Positions 3,409 through 44,853 of a DNA stretch of 64,000 bases are shown in pieces; within the stretch, counting starts at the first letter, position 1; each line of letters begins with the position of its first letter. Location of the stretch: the sequence record OR544955, one strand, 5' to 3'. The notes under the pieces are model-generated. The model had not been told where the DNA came from. It saw only the letters and a list, made by a program, of their open reading frames with translations, and made no database searches. The DNA comes from Escherichia phage vB_EcoP_EP32B. The translations under genes were made by a program, and so were the position numbers.

Positions 3409-4029
3409 ATGTTTAAACGTAAATCTACTGCTGACCTCGCTGCTCAAATGGCTAAACTGAACGGTAACAAAGGTTTCTCTTCAGAAGATAAAGGCGAATG
3501 GAAGCTGAAACTCGACGCATCCGGTAATGGTCAAGCGGTAATTCGTTTCCTGCCGGCAAAAACAGATGACGCCATCTACACACGGCGATTATGACTCTTG
3601 TCCTGTATGTCAGTACATTAGTAAAAATGACCTGTACAATACCAACAAAAATGAATATTCTCAACTGAAACGTAAAACTTCTTATTGGGCTAATATTCTG
3701 GTTGTTAAAGACCCTCAAGCTCCAGATAACGAAGGTAAAGTATTCAAATACCGTTTTGGTAAAAAGATTTGGGACAAAATCAATGCAATGATTGCAGTTG
3801 ATACTGAAATGGGTGAAACTCCTGTTGATGTAACTTGGTTCTTGGTACTGCCGCTCTGGGCGGTGCAGCAGCTGCCGCAGCTTCTGTTGCAGATAAAGTT
3901 GCTTCTGACCTTGACGATTTTGATAAAGACATGGAAGCCTTTAGTTCTGCAAAAACTGAAGATGACTTCATGAGCTCTACCTCATCCTCTGATGATGGCG
4001 ACCTCGATGACCTGTTAGCTGGTCTATAA
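3409..4029 (+). pseudogene. 32: ssDNA-binding protein gene 32, interrupted by two frame-breaking lesions (about 621 bp versus ~906 bp expected)
   Basis: Frame 1 [36 protein letters not shown]...AVIRFLP matches T4 gp32 N-terminus then stops; frame 2 resumes at ...[21 protein letters not shown]...GETPVDVT (zinc-binding region); frame 1 again supplies the acidic C-terminus ...[12 protein letters not shown]. About 20 residues before THGDYD and most of the core after DVT are absent. Confidence 0.8.
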
Positions 4030-12410: not shown

Positions 12411-12697
12411 TTAAATTAATCGCAGTTGTATTATCTATTGGCATTTTGGCTGGATGTGCCCAGGATGTGCCCTTAAGCCCTAAAGAAACTTTACATCCGC
12501 CATGGCCTGAATCTATTGTTGAATATAACCAGAAATGGCAAGTAAAGGTTATTGATGGTAATCCGTGGGTTGGAATGCCATTTGAAGACTCTCAAGAATT
12601 TCGTATCTGGTTAAACGACGTAAAAAGATATGTACATGACCAGAAGACTATGTTATGTTATTATCGTAGTGGTTTAAAAGAGGAAAAATGCCAATGA
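12407..12697 (+). CDS. Putative lipoprotein (signal peptide with LAGC lipobox)
   Basis: N-terminus MIKLIAVVLSIGILAGCAQD: hydrophobic core followed by L-A-G-C. Confidence 0.5.
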   Translation: MIKLIAVVLSIGILAGCAQDVPLSPKETLHPPWPESIVEYNQKWQVKVIDGNPWVGMPFEDSQEFRIWLNDVKRYVHDQKTMLCYYRSGLKEEKCQ

Positions 12698-12912
12698 CTA
12701 AAGAACAGCATGAACACATTAAAGGGCTTATCTATGAATCTGAAATGGCGGCTATGATTTATGGGCGCCAGATTCAACGATTAGAATCTTTGCCTCCGAC
12801 TAATGACCGATTGTTAGTTCAGTCTCGTGCTAATCTGAAAAATGAATATCAGAATAAGTGGGCAGTAGCGACTAAAGCTCTTCACGAGTATATTGAATCT
12901 TTAGTAAAATAG
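12688..12912 (+). CDS. Hypothetical protein
   Basis: 74-aa ORF overlapping the previous stop; sense strand of early array. Confidence 0.45.
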   Translation: MPMTKEQHEHIKGLIYESEMAAMIYGRQIQRLESLPPTNDRLLVQSRANLKNEYQNKWAVATKALHEYIESLVK

Positions 12913-12941
12913 TTTACAAACTCTCAGGAGCAGAGTATAAT
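12912..12941 (+). promoter_or_regulatory. T4-type early promoter
   Basis: GTTTAC 12912-12917; TATAAT 12936-12941. Confidence 0.65.
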
Positions 12942-12969
12942 GCTCCTATGGATAATTGAGGAAATCTAA

Positions 12970-13270
12970 ATGAAAACATTACTAGAGAATTACATCAAAC
13001 GGTCTGATGAGTATATTGATATCTGTCGTGGAACGTCGTCACTTGTCAATTATGACAAAGATGCGGCAAAGGCACTAGATGAAGCAGGTAAAGCTCTTCG
13101 TAAAGCTGCTAAAGAAAAAGGGTTGGATTTGCAACAACTCAAAAGTCATATGATTAAATTTATTTCTTCAAACGTTAGAAGTACGTCAATTAATAAAAAC
13201 GTTGCTGAAATTAATAAAGACCGGCGCGAGCATAACATTCGTATTCTTGAAATTTTCTTAGGAATAAATA

Positions 13271-13293
<23 letters not shown>
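12970..13293 (+). CDS. Hypothetical protein
   Basis: 107-aa ORF downstream of early promoter 12912-12941. Confidence 0.5.
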
Positions 13294-14357
<1,064 letters not shown>

Positions 14358-21844: not shown

Positions 21845-23261
21845 TTTTAGATATTTTAAACCAAATAGCTGCGATCGGTTCTACTAAAACAAAACAGGAA
21901 ATCCTTAAGAAAAATAAGGACAACAAATTACTTGAACGTGTATATCGTTTAACGTATGCACGTGGCATTCAGTATTATATTAAGAAATGGCCAGGACCAG
22001 GTGAAAGGTCTCAAGCGTATGGCCTTCTTGAATTAGATGACATGTTGGATTTTATTGAGTTCACATTGGCCACTCGTAAACTCACTGGTAATGCAGCAAT
22101 TAAAGAGCTCATGGGTTATATCGCTCTATCGCGAATAAGGTATGGCCTGGACTTATTCAATTGCAACCGCAGATGTTAGCATCTGCATATGACGAGAAAT
22201 TGATTACTAAAAATATTAAATGGCCTGCATTTGCTCAATTAAAGGCAGATGGTGCTCGTTGTTTCGCTGAAGTTCGTGATGACGGTGTTCAATTCTTTTC
22301 TCGTGCTGGTAATGAATACCATGGTCTTACCCTATTAGCAGATGAACTAATGGAAATGACTAAAGAAGCCCGTGAAAGACACCCTAATGGGGTTTTAATC
22401 GACGGTGAATTGGTTTATCATTCATTTGATATTAAAAAGGCTGTGAGCTCAGGAAATGACCTGTCGTTCTTATTTGGCGATAATGAAGAATCTGAAGAAG
22501 TACAAGTTGCAGACCGTAGTACTTCAAATGGTTTAGCAAATAAATCTCTTCAAGGGACTATTTCTCCTAAAGAAGCGGAAGGTATGGTTCTTCAAGCCTG
22601 GGACTATGTTCCTTTAGATGAAGTCTATTCTAACGGCAAAATTAAAGGTCAGAAATACGATGTTCGTTTTGCTGCTCTTGAAAATATGGCTGAAGGCTTT
22701 AAACGAATTGAACCTATCGAAAACCAGTTAGTTCGTAATCTTGATGAAGCTAAAGTGGTTTATAAAAAATATGTTGACCAAGGTCTTGAAGGTATTATCC
22801 TTAAAAACCGTGATTCATACTGGGAAAACAAACGCTCTAAGAACCTAATTAAATTTAAAGAAGTTATTGATATCGCTTTAGAAGTTGTAGGATACTATGA
22901 ACACTCTAAAGACCCTAACAAATTAGGTGGTGTCGAACTCGTATCACGTTGTCGTCGTATTACAACCGATTGTGGTTCAGGGTTTAAAGATACAACTCAT
23001 AAAACAGTTGACGGTGTAAAGGTTCTTATTCCTTTAGATGAGCGTCATGATTTAGACCGTGAACGATTAATGGCTGAAGCTCGTGAAGGTAAATTGATTG
23101 GACGTATTGCTGATTGCGAATGTAATGGTTGGGTTCATTCTAAAGGCCGTGAAGGTACTGTAGGTATTTTCCTTCCAATTATTAAAGGGTTCCGTTTTGA
23201 TAAAACAGAAGCGGATTCGTTTGAAGACGTATTTGGACCGTGGTCCCAGACAGGTTTATAA
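21841..23261 (+). pseudogene. 30: ATP-dependent DNA ligase gene 30, broken by a frameshifting deletion near 22115-22130
   Basis: ORF 21841..22179 = MILDILNQIAAIGSTKTKQEILKKNKDNKLLERVYRLTYARGIQYYIKKWP...LTGNAAIKELMGYI then out of frame; ORF 22161..23261 carries ...KVWPGLI...QPQMLASAYDEK...LKADGARCFAEV (adenylation KxDG) to the C-terminus. About 25 residues between GYI and ANKVWPG are missing. Confidence 0.85.
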
Positions 23262-33680: not shown

Positions 33681-33877
33681 TGCGTTATTCAATTGAAGAT
33701 GCCTTTAATAATGATGAAGAATTTGAAACAGAAATTAAATTCTTAATGGAAAAGTATCGTCTACGACGTCAGGATATTCGTATCCTGGCAGACCACCCGT
33801 GTGGTGAAGACGTCCTTTATATTAAAGGAAAATTTGCCGGTGCGAGTGGTATAAATAGATATGTAATTTCAACTTAG
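33680..33877 (+). CDS. Hypothetical protein (uvsY.-2 position)
   Basis: 65-aa ORF overlapping uvsY stop. Confidence 0.5.
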   Translation: MRYSIEDAFNNDEEFETEIKFLMEKYRLRRQDIRILADHPCGEDVLYIKGKFAGASGINRYVIST

Positions 33878-36613: not shown

Positions 36614-38029
36614 ATGGCCTTCACTGTCACGTTATCTCCTCTAACTCCTACAGGGGTTATTGGAGGTTCACAAACATTCACTGCTACACCCGCAGGTGAA
36701 GCTCCAGACGGTACTATTACATACGTCTGGACTGTAGATGATATAACACAGGGCTCTACAGCTGCTACAATGGATTATACTCTTGCTTCTCCAGCAGGAA
36801 CAAAAAAAATTAAAGTGGTTGCAACTAATACACTTTCCGAAGGAGATCCGGAAATAGCTGAAGCATCAACAACTATCACTGTTAATAAGAAAGAAAATAA
36901 TTCCACTATCACTGTTACTCCGGCTTCTCCAGCGGCAGTAGAAATTGGAACAGCAACAACATTCACTGCTAATGTAAACAATAAACCTACTGGTGCTGCT
37001 ATTGCTTATACATGGAAAGTTGACGGGGTCGCTGTCGACGGTCAAAAACAATCAACCTTTGAATATACACCAACATCTGAAGGAACTAAGTCTATAACTT
37101 GCTCTGCCACAGTGACTGCAACTGATTACGTTGATAAAACGGTAGAATCATCAGCGGTTTCTTTGACTGTAAATAAAAAGGCTAATTCTTCAACGCTAAA
37201 AATTACACCAGAGTCTCCGACTACAGTCTTTGGTGTTCCTATTACTTTAACTGCAAATGTCTCTAGTGCACCTTCAGGTGCTACTACATCATTCCAGTGG
37301 TCAATGGATGACAGTAATATTCCAGATGCAACTTCTGCTACGTATAAATTCACTCCAACCGAGGTCGGAAGTAAAACTCTTAAATGCACCGTATCTGTTT
37401 CTGCAACAAATTATGTTACAAAAGAAATTTCAGCAGAAGCAACAGTAGTAACTAATAATGCGACATTTAATAGTGCCACCATTTCTTTATCTCCGCCATC
37501 AGTTAATACTACTGTTGGTGAAACTGCAACTTTAACAGCATCTGTTACTGGTGCTCCGGGTGATACTAATATTGTGTATTCTTGGAAGAAAGACAACGTA
37601 GCAGAAAGTAATTCTACTAATACTTACAGTATTGATACCTCCTCGGCAGGTACTCATACAATTAAAGTTGAAGCAGTATTAACTAAAGATAATTATACTT
37701 CAAAGACAATTAGTTCAACCGCTGAAGTTGTTATTGCTGAACGGACTCCAATTGAACCAGAAGGTGAACTACCTTATGTTCATCCTCTTCCGCATCGTAC
37801 TTCAGCTTACATCTGGTGCGGATGGTGGGTTATGGATGAAATCCAAAAAATGACTGAAGAAGGTAAAGATTGGAAAATTGACGATCCAGATAGTAAGTAT
37901 TACTTGCATCGTTATACGCTTCAGAAGATGATGAAAGACTACCCAGAAGTTGATGTTCAAGAATCACGTAATGGATACATCGTCCATAAAACTGCTTTGG
38001 AAACTGGTATCATCTATACATATCCATAA
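36614..38029 (+). CDS. hoc: Hoc outer capsid protein with four tandem Ig-like domains plus C-terminal capsid-binding domain
   Basis: 471 aa; four ~93-aa repeats each starting near ...ITVTP/LKITP/ATISLSP and ending ...Y.WK.DD / ...TV.NKK; Trp-rich C-terminus (YIWCGWWVMDE). Confidence 0.8.
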   Translation: MAFTVTLSPLTPTGVIGGSQTFTATPAGEAPDGTITYVWTVDDITQGSTAATMDYTLASPAGTKKIKVVATNTLSEGDPEIAEASTTITVNKKENNSTITVTPASPAAVEIGTATTFTANVNNKPTGAAIAYTWKVDGVAVDGQKQSTFEYTPTSEGTKSITCSATVTATDYVDKTVESSAVSLTVNKKANSSTLKITPESPTTVFGVPITLTANVSSAPSGATTSFQWSMDDSNIPDATSATYKFTPTEVGSKTLKCTVSVSATNYVTKEISAEATVVTNNATFNSATISLSPPSVNTTVGETATLTASVTGAPGDTNIVYSWKKDNVAESNSTNTYSIDTSSAGTHTIKVEAVLTKDNYTSKTISSTAEVVIAERTPIEPEGELPYVHPLPHRTSAYIWCGWWVMDEIQKMTEEGKDWKIDDPDSKYYLHRYTLQKMMKDYPEVDVQESRNGYIVHKTALETGIIYTYP

Positions 38030-41100: not shown

Positions 41101-41370
41101 ATGACTAAAGCACGTTTCTTACGAGATACTTTAAAAGTTCTGGAAGCTGAAGCAGTTAAGTTAGTAGAAAAATATGGTGCAAAAGTTAATGGTAATGCCT
41201 TCAACAAAGTATGGATGAAAGTTGATTCTGAAGCTCGAGCTAAAGGTTATTGGGCCACTGATAAACTTGCATCATTCAAAAACAAAGACGGTTCTCCAGC
41301 ATATATCCAAGAAGGTATGCCTAATTGGCAAAATATTTTGAAAACTTACATCAAAATTGCACAGAAATAA
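41101..41370 (+). CDS. Hypothetical protein on the early-sense strand between genes 24 and 23
   Basis: 89-aa ORF with its own early-type promoter (41041-41070) and RBS GGAG. Confidence 0.5.
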   Translation: MTKARFLRDTLKVLEAEAVKLVEKYGAKVNGNAFNKVWMKVDSEARAKGYWATDKLASFKNKDGSPAYIQEGMPNWQNILKTYIKIAQK

Positions 41371-41422: not shown

Positions 41423-42951
41423 TTAGATGCCTTTTACATATACACGGCGGAAGTAAGCGTTCTTACCAAGGCTGTTCAGGATAGACGGCATACCGGACTG
41501 GATGCGAGCACCTGGAGCCTGCAGGGAACTTTCAGCAAACGGGTTAACACCGATACCGTAACGAGTTTTGAAGCCCATTACCGGCTGGAAGTTCTTAGGA
41601 TCAGAACCACGCAGTGGGGTAAGTGCAACGTAAGGAGCATAGTAAATACCTGCATCCATTTCGTTAGCGCCTTTGTAACCAACGGTGAAGTAATCCTGTT
41701 TAGCATACTGGTCGATGTATACGCGGTATTTACCACCAAGTACACCGGCAAATACAGACTTAGTAGTGTCGGTATTAAAACCAGAAGCCAGACCCTGTGC
41801 AGCGTAAGAAATACCAGTATCAACTGAAGCCAGTACGTTAACTACGTTACGGGAAGCGATAATGAAGTTACCTTCACCACGACCGGTTTGACGAGCAATT
41901 TCAACTGCTTCTTTATCAATCTGGAACAACAGAGATTTAAAGCTTTCACCGGCCCAACGAGCACCACGGATATCAATCGGGTCCTGGAAGTCAAATACAC
42001 CAGCTTTAGAACCCGGAGTCAGGGTCATACCGGATTTACCAACCTGTGCTGAGTAGTTAATCCAATCAACAACTTCACGGTTGATTTCTAGCATAATTTC
42101 TGTAGCCAGAATACCACTCAGTTCAGCATCAGCATCCATACCGTGTACTGCACGGAGGTCTTGTGCTAATTCGATAGAGTAAGCAGCTTTCAGCTGGCGA
42201 GATTTAGCTTCGATAACTTGTTTATCGATACGGAAGCCCATTTCATTCCATGGGTTATCGGTAGAACCGTTGAAACCTTCCTGAAGTTCAGCGATAGAAG
42301 TAGCCATACCTTCAGCGATTTCTACCAGTGCACCAGCTTCCATTTGTTTCTTAACTTCGGCATCTAATTTAGCAGCATCGGTCGCATCGATTGTTACTTG
42401 AACAGAAGCTTGCAGATATACAGTACCAGTTTCCTGGAAGAAGTGAGTGCCAGAGCTGGGAATTTCTTAGCAGCACCCTGACCAGAGAACATCGCATCTG
42501 GGGCATACATCGGATGGAAAGCTTCTTTAGCGCCAGCAGCGATAGGGTCTTTACCATATACTGCACGGAGAGCAAATACCTGACCGGTCGGGCTGTTCAT
42601 AGGCTGAACACCACAAATATCAAAAGCGATCAGATTAGGAATAGCACGACGAACCATACCCATAACTGCTGGCCCAATTTGGGTTACTGCACCAGAGGTT
42701 TGACCTGCTGCGATGTTCTGAGCATTATAACCATGGTCACCACCAATTTCAGCTTCGGTCAAGAAAGAACCAAATGCCTGAGCGATTTTCTCGTCTTTAT
42801 ATTCAGGGGATACTTCGAAATCTTTTTCCTGGTTTTCGAAGATTTTAGCGATAATAGCCTGCTTGCTATTAGCGATTTCCGGCAGGCCTTCACCTTCCAG
42901 CAGTTCTTTCCATTTGTCTACGAGCTGAGCTTTAGTTTTGATAGTAGTCAT
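41423..42951 (-). pseudogene. 23: Major capsid protein gene 23, broken by a frameshifting deletion near 42447
   Basis: ORF 42394..42951 = MTTIKTKAQLVDKWKELLEGEGLPEIANSKQAIIAKIFENQEK...AAKKFPALA then out of frame; ORF 41423..42343 continues MEAGALVEIAEGMATSIAELQEGF...YFRRVYVKGI. Both match T4 gp23 nearly residue for residue; about 12 residues after FPALA are missing. Confidence 0.9.
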
Positions 42952-42968: not shown

Positions 42969-43781
42969 TTAGAAACGAGATGCGACTTTCGCATATAAAC
43001 TTACATTAGAATTCTGTTCTACCTGAGTTGTGGTAGTGTCAACTGCTTCGGCAACAAAATTAAGACCGGCAGCGTCATTGTCAACTGTATTTATACTTTC
43101 GGTAATAGCGGCTTCTTCTTTAGTAGAACCTTTAACCATTTCTACAATAGCAGTTAACTTAGTACCAAATGCGTCAGAATAATCCATACCTTCAACCAGG
43201 CCAATAACTTTTTCTTTCTGAGATTCAGTCAGGTCTTTTACGCTTTCATTAATAGCGGTTTCACGCTGAACGTAATTGATATATGCATCACGTTTGGTAA
43301 CTTCTTCGAACAAACGAGCGGTTTCTTCTTTATGTTCGGCCAGCTCTTCTTCCATTTCTGCTACAACATCTACAGATTCTTCTGGAACAACAACGTTATG
43401 TTCAACAAACAGTTCTTTCAGACCACCAAGCATGGATTCGAACAAATCAGCTTTAATGCCTTTATCAACTGCGATTTGGTTTTCTGCGAGCCATTCTTTT
43501 GCAAGATGGTCTAGGAATTTAGAAGCTTGTTCAGCCAATTTTTTATCAGCTTTCTCTTCAGCATCTTCTTTAGCCTTTTCAACTTCTTCTTCGGCCTTTT
43601 CGGCGATGGCTTTGATATGAGATTCAGCCAGTTTGACTGCTTCCTGCTTAACGGTGGCTTCGAATACAGTGCTGAAATTAGCTTTAACGTCCGGAGACAG
43701 TTCTACTGATTCGAAAACACTATTAAGAGCAACTGAAGTCTCGATGTTCTGAGCTTCTTTCAAAAGTTGTTCTTTGATCAT
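42969..43781 (-). CDS. 22: Prohead core scaffold protein gp22
   Basis: 270 aa (T4 269); Glu/Ala/Lys-rich coiled-coil composition; late promoter upstream. Confidence 0.85.
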   Translation of the reverse strand: MIKEQLLKEAQNIETSVALNSVFESVELSPDVKANFSTVFEATVKQEAVKLAESHIKAIAEKAEEEVEKAKEDAEEKADKKLAEQASKFLDHLAKEWLAENQIAVDKGIKADLFESMLGGLKELFVEHNVVVPEESVDVVAEMEEELAEHKEETARLFEEVTKRDAYINYVQRETAINESVKDLTESQKEKVIGLVEGMDYSDAFGTKLTAIVEMVKGSTKEEAAITESINTVDNDAAGLNFVAEAVDTTTTQVEQNSNVSLYAKVASRF

Positions 43782-43811: not shown

Positions 43812-43819
43812 TATTTATA
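43812..43819 (-). promoter_or_regulatory. Late promoter for gene 22
   Basis: Minus-strand TATAAATA overlapping the 3' end of gene 21, ~31 nt upstream of gene 22. Confidence 0.65.
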
Positions 43820-44428
43820 ATGCTTTTAAACTCTCTGCGAGAGCTTTAAATGCTTCATCAGCACTGTTTTTGGTGATTTCCACCGAATTTTCTGATTCTG
43901 ATATTTGTTTAGGAGTAACCCAAGCATCTGGAGCAGAAGGTCCCCACACGGCATCTACGCCGACGGTTAATTTAAATCCTTCGTTCACGATACGGTACCC
44001 TTTATTGGTGTCGGTTAAAGAACCAAGACCACGAGAGGAAACACCTGGAATCCAACCAGCTCGTATATTAGCAGCTAATTTATCGCCGGGACCATGGTCG
44101 CCTTCAATAATTCTAGCGCGTCCATATACATCGTTTCCTTTCCACCACATATCTTCAATAATGATAGCGGCTTGCATAGGGTCAACATTTGCGCGAGGTG
44201 GATGATTTAATTCTCCAAGGGCTTGTTTGGTTGCGCTTTTTCCAAAACGCGTTTAGGATATAAACGTTTATTTCGGTTAACAACCTCTGCCTGAAGAAAA
44301 ATACCTTCTATATAAAGCCCTGGTTTTAAGCCAGAATCTTTTCCATCATGAGATTCCAACATTGGAACGCCATCAATAATCTCACCGGGTTGACCCCAAG
44401 TTTCAATAAGTAACTCGGGTTTATTCAT
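43815..44428 (-). pseudogene. 21: Prohead protease gene 21, broken by a frameshifting deletion near 44230-44236
   Basis: ORF 44207..44428 = [31 protein letters not shown]...RLYPKRVLEKA then out of frame; ORF 43815..44177 = MQAAIIIEDMWWKGNDVYGRARIIEGDHGPGDKLAANIRAGWIPGVSSRGLGS... Correct frame resumes at ...TKQALGELNHPPRANVDPMQA; about 10 residues missing. Confidence 0.85.
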
Positions 44429-44853
44429 TAGCTTAATCCTAATGCTTTACGACGTTTAAGAGCTTTTTTACGCTTACGCAAGCCTTTAACTTGGCCTGAA
44501 GGGTTAGCTTTTTTAGCTTTAACGACCTTACGAGCGATTTGTCTACGTTTTGCTTTAGAAAGACCAGTGGTTTGGAACGCATTACGTTCACGAGTTTTAC
44601 GGTCTTTAGTGCGGGTGACTTCACCACGAGAAGAAACATGTTTAACGATAAACTCGTTTAACTGTTCTTCATTAATAATGGAAGCCATTGCAACAGCTAA
44701 ATCCGTTTCAGTTTCAAGCATGTTCTCGATAATAGTATTTATATCGTCAATATCGAGAGCAGAAGACAATGCATCGATTCGGCCCTGTGCTTCAGGAATA
44801 AGTGCTTCGACATTTTCGAGTACCAATTCATAAGATTCAGGGATAAGATACAT
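44428..44853 (-). CDS. 68: Prohead core protein gp68
   Basis: 141 aa, identical to T4 gp68 length; synteny 67-68-21. Confidence 0.7.

Follow-up and report, generated by a model that had tools for sequence, protein, structure and literature searches.

The 28-nt gap that interrupts gene 21 in this phage sequence is in all likelihood a fault of the sequence record, with no biological origin. The window, i.e. the whole stretch of 64,000 nucleotides that was analysed, comes from a T4-type phage that resembles RB69 (genus Mosigvirus). The process that took 28 nt from gene 21 would also have taken 14 other stretches of 15–321 nt from the window, and most likely it acted while the sequence was produced or handled. 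A sequence-only reading had described gene 21 as frameshifted and had presented it as a lone lesion of possible biological interest. The frameshift stands for the gene as given, but the lesion is not alone, as it is one of 15 private deletions.

Interruption of gene 21

The head genes are clustered on the minus strand in the order 20, 67, 68, 21, 22, 23, and gene 21 lies between gene 68 (44428..44853) and gene 22 (42969..43781). The order of the cluster is the same in RB69 and in 10 other loci. Within the window, gene 21 had been reported as split into two minus-strand open reading frames (ORFs), and both are found where they had been placed. The parts of the interrupted gene are as follows.

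44207..44428, minus strand, N-terminal fragment ORF of gene 21, 73 aa, ending in RLYPKRVLEKAQPNKPLEN and a stop
44235..44236, minus strand, deletion junction; the 28 nt absent between these two bases correspond to NC_041863.1 45556-45583
43815..44235, minus strand, rest of gene 21 as read in the -1 frame (codons 75-213 and a stop at 43815-43817)
43815..44177, minus strand, C-terminal ORF as listed, 120 aa, beginning MQAAIIIEDMWW, with the first start codon at Met94 (44175-44177)

The N-terminal ORF consists of the native residues M1 to A65 (65 residues), followed by eight residues read out of frame (QPNKPLEN) up to a TAA stop codon at 44207-44209. The shift of -1 occurs directly after RLYPKRVLEKA, and the second frame, with the interval translated, reads ATKQALGELNHPPRANVDPMQAAIIIEDMWW. 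The change of frame had been located near 44230-44236; alignment puts it within that span, between 44235 and 44236, with an ambiguity of placement of 1 nt and a microhomology of 1 nt. The flanks of the deletion match the relatives exactly. On the coding strand, the missing 28 nt are CCGTAAGCGACTATATTAAAGAACAAGT, and they take in the final 2 nt of codon 65 at one end and the initial 2 nt of codon 74 at the other, so that residues 66–73 are lost together with parts of these two flanking codons (VSDYIKEQV). The earlier estimate, some 10 codons ± 1 nt, was close to the exact figure, which is 9 codons and 1 nt.

A single uninterrupted ORF of ~212 codons is not found in the window, where the gene is split between 44235 and 44236. 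When the 28 nt are re-inserted, an ORF of 213 codons results, and the protein it encodes shares 100% identity with the gp21 of RB69 and that of Escherichia coli O157 typing phage 3. The split is neither a matter of chance nor a quirk of ORF calling.

The gp21 protease

The gene 21 product is a protease needed for degradation of the scaffolding core and for cleavage of gp23 and gp24 (PMC9958956). It is the head-maturation protease and is essential, as the earlier description had it. The Pfam profile Peptidase_S77 (PF03420) is itself divided by the interruption: the N-terminal fragment matches profile positions 1-72 of 198 (E=8e-28) and the C-terminal fragment positions 100-197 of 198. The repaired protein matches positions 1-197 of 198 with E=3e-107, i.e. 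it has the whole domain. Both its sequence and its position mark gene 21 as a typical representative of the gp21/Peptidase_S77 family.

The repaired product also aligns with T4 gp21 (PDB 5JBL) with E=3e-125, and His85 and Ser140 are in place. The chain in 5JBL differs from the repaired protein by Ala at precisely residues 85 and 140, the catalytic His and Ser of T4 gp21. Codons for both residues are present in the window.

44202-44204, minus strand, codon of His85, downstream of the frame break
44037-44039, minus strand, codon of Ser140, downstream of the frame break

The two catalytic residues are not found in one polypeptide; the earliest start in the second ORF is Met94, which is past His85. 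As written, gene 21 can yield no product with both His85 and Ser140. Translational rescue was considered and rejected, as a slippery heptamer is lacking and the second frame has no start codon before His85.

Comparison with relatives

A 200-nt query across the junction is covered over at least 80% of its length by 151 phage records, and each of the best-matching records listed aligns in two pieces, with 228 nt for the 200 nt of the query. The 31-mer across the junction does not occur in the collections of viral, genome and metagenome contigs searched, including IMG/VR, GTDB genomes and JGI metagenomes, and a search of E. coli genomes and plasmids found nothing that matches the junction region of gene 21. 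At the protein level, no exact copy of the truncated gp21 ORF is on record. The same is true of the exact PseT protein of the window, and a scan of IMG/VR for relatives of PseT returned distant loci only.

A comparison of gene 21 with that of relatives had been suggested by the sequence-only reading, and the gene proves to be intact, with 213–215 codons, in every relative examined. Ten independent comparison loci were defined as contigs that encode an identical gp22 (from NCBI, ENA, JGI and Logan). All 10 encode a gp21 of 213–215 aa and a gp23 of 522 aa. The lesion is neither common to the relatives nor accompanied by relaxed constraint; it is private to the window.

Fifteen deletions in the window

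The best relative, used as the reference, is E. coli O157 typing phage 3 (NC_041863.1; about 98% identity). Positions 1-64000 of the window are collinear from end to end with positions 1-65384 of the reference, and of the 1384 nt by which the two differ in length, 1376 are explained by 15 deletions of 15–321 nt. By window position these are:

3573, 68 nt, in gene 32 (plus strand), single-stranded DNA-binding protein
3838, 214 nt, in gene 32 (plus strand); the gene 32 lesions span 3572..3838
4762, 321 nt
5866, 17 nt
9357, 79 nt
12129, 58 nt
17952, 247 nt
20198, 34 nt
22125 (22124..22125, plus strand), 73 nt, frameshifts gene 30 (DNA ligase)
23290, 102 nt
25448, 15 nt
33841, 50 nt
42449 (42448..42449, minus strand), 34 nt, frameshifts gene 23 (major capsid protein)
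44236, 28 nt, in gene 21
53225, 36 nt

By the annotation of the reference, eleven genes are frameshifted or truncated: 32, frd.1 together with its neighbour, td, nrdB, pseT.3 (spanin), rIII, 30.4, 30, uvsY.-1, 23 and 21. The deletions in alt.1, alt and gene 14 are in frame. In gene 32, the two deletions sum to 282 nt and the frame is regained after 265 nt, and gene 23 is split by its 34-nt deletion into minus-strand ORFs at 42394..42951 and 41423..42343.

The four deletions at 33–54 kb of the window are found at the same positions and with the same lengths against the 10 independent loci, with the provisos that in one locus the longest aligned piece does not reach site 53225 and that in another the alignment begins at 33841, that deletion being unscored. 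The 11 deletions at 3–26 kb are seen again in comparison with three further phages; where natural indels lie nearby, their lengths differ slightly. RB69 retains the stretches deleted at 3–26 kb, except for part of the 321-nt one. Judged against 4–12 genomes per site, and for gene 21 also against about 150 phage records, all 15 deletions are private to the window sequence.

Variation in other genes

A small ORF of 89 aa is present between genes 24 and 23 in the window (41101..41370, plus strand); some relatives (L006 and L012, ~12457-13386) have in its place two ORFs, of 219 and 88 aa, that are unrelated to it. The exchange looks like a natural cassette polymorphism, and a mobile endonuclease is possibly involved. 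In OZ035759.1 (locus L014, 17947-18678), an extra ORF of 243 aa with faint GIY-YIG/SegE-like Pfam matches lies upstream of uvsW; neither the window nor any of the remaining loci has it. The hoc gene varies in the number of Ig-like repeats: the window (36614..38029, plus strand) encodes a Hoc of 471 aa, and relatives have 283, 376 or 472 aa. A large protein collection has no exact match to the Hoc of the window.

Origin of the deletions

Two superimposed processes can be read from the alignment, ordinary evolution under purifying selection and a recent deletion process that is blind to selection. The small indels relative to the reference (n=8) comprise seven intergenic ones and one in-frame insertion of 3 nt in gene 32, and this intergenic or in-frame pattern sets them apart from the large deletions (Fisher P=3e-5). 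Only 4 of the 15 deletion lengths are divisible by three, where 5 are expected by chance. Insertions relative to the reference are of just 3 nt and 1 nt. Substitutions look natural, and those in the broken genes point to strong purifying selection: the broken genes have 147 synonymous and 20 non-synonymous differences and the remainder of the window 716 and 132; in gene 21 itself there are six synonymous differences and no non-synonymous ones. There are no nonsense mutations or frameshifts of 1–2 nt among the ~85 CDS of the window, no scrambled, inverted or inserted blocks were found elsewhere in it, and it has no N characters. Apart from the deletions, the genes look fully functional.

Genes 32, 30, 23 and 21 are indispensable in T4. 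Since all four are broken here, a genome of this kind could not be propagated, and the deletions are best taken as absent from the phage itself; a phage with these lesions should not be able to form plaques. Candidate causes include mis-joined contigs or wrongly closed gaps, a consensus from which uncovered or masked stretches were left out, and later editing. Base 1 of the window is also base 1 of NC_041863.1, an arbitrary base inside gene 34 (RB69 ~150.6 kb), and the shared start would fit assembly of the parent record against a reference or in a shared pipeline. Two more specific causes were tried. Mapping drop-out at divergent stretches is unsupported, as the mismatch rate at 20–200 nt around the gaps (1.6–2.2%) is that of the window overall (1.7%). 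Repeat-mediated deletion or collapse of an assembly graph is rejected, as microhomology at the junctions is at or below chance (mean 0.27 nt, vs 0.71 nt at random placement).

A real deletion mutant, in which the sequenced DNA truly lacks the 28 nt, is very improbable. Such DNA might come from a laboratory 21-minus mutant or from defective genomes carried by a helper, and the phage would be expected to stall at the stage of the uncleaved prohead. T4 gene 21 mutants are classical laboratory tools, and the deletion is clean, with flanks that are exact relative to those of the relatives. For degradation of the core and cleavage of gp23 and gp24, gp21 is required (PMC9958956). However, frameshifts are found also in genes 32, 30, 23, td, nrdB and others, and no stock could carry them all; moreover, the junction is in no other sequence of the collections searched. 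In T4, natural deletions usually form between direct repeats of short length, and the low microhomology at the junctions of the window speaks against an origin of this kind.

That the window represents a degenerating, non-replicating phage remnant whose genes are becoming pseudogenes is scarcely credible. Many genes are indeed broken simultaneously, but the count of nonsense mutations and 1–2 nt frameshifts in the ~85 CDS is zero. The broken genes are as constrained as the intact ones (147:20 vs 716:132), gene order and content are complete across the 64 kb, and no E. coli genome or plasmid has a match. Equally little credence can be given to a combined alternative, i.e. that the packaged DNA truly has the 28-nt deletion, and perhaps others, in mutually complementing or helper-dependent genomes, or that an unrecognised -1 shift at GGAAAAAGC gives a shortened gp21. 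Recoding on its own, a programmed -1 ribosomal frameshift near GGAAAAAGC that would produce a gp21 without residues 66–74, has a negligible probability: the second frame is indeed -1 relative to the first, and a run of five A lies within the 17-codon overlap (from the -1-frame stop to the 0-frame stop), but there is no canonical X_XXY_YYZ heptamer in the 0 frame from the upstream stop of the -1 frame to 44207, the gene is uninterrupted in every relative examined, 10 other genes are similarly broken with no common signal, and the product would lose nine residues that are near-identical between the window phage and T4.

With an artefact of the record as the preferred explanation, the break in gene 21 has no biological importance and would not count as a new feature. 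The other 'frameshifted genes' of the window (32, td, nrdB, pseT.3, rIII, 30.4, 30, uvsY.-1 and 23) would have the same trivial explanation. The window, and presumably the parent record, is unfit for gene calls, counts of pseudogenes or claims of essential-gene loss until it has been re-checked. It should be pointed out what a true lesion, which the context renders very unlikely, would mean: if a T4-type phage could form plaques without a working prohead protease, a step of head maturation that is regarded as firmly established would be overturned.

Comparison with known systems

The gp21 proteins of T4-type phages (MEROPS/Pfam Peptidase_S77; 5JBL; RB69 NP_861875) are like that of the window in gene position and, once repaired, in sequence. 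They differ in that their gene is uninterrupted, whereas the window copy is broken after codon 65. Natural T4 deletion mutants resemble the window in the loss of tens to hundreds of nucleotides; here, in contrast, there are no above-chance flanking repeats, essential genes are struck, and 15 events fall within 64 kb. Record-level deletion artefacts are the third system for comparison. The window differs from them in having neither runs of N nor raised divergence at the edges of the gaps. It is like them in its multiple clean gaps confined to one record, which are random with regard to frame and gene importance and lack microhomology, and also in an otherwise high-quality sequence with natural-looking substitutions.
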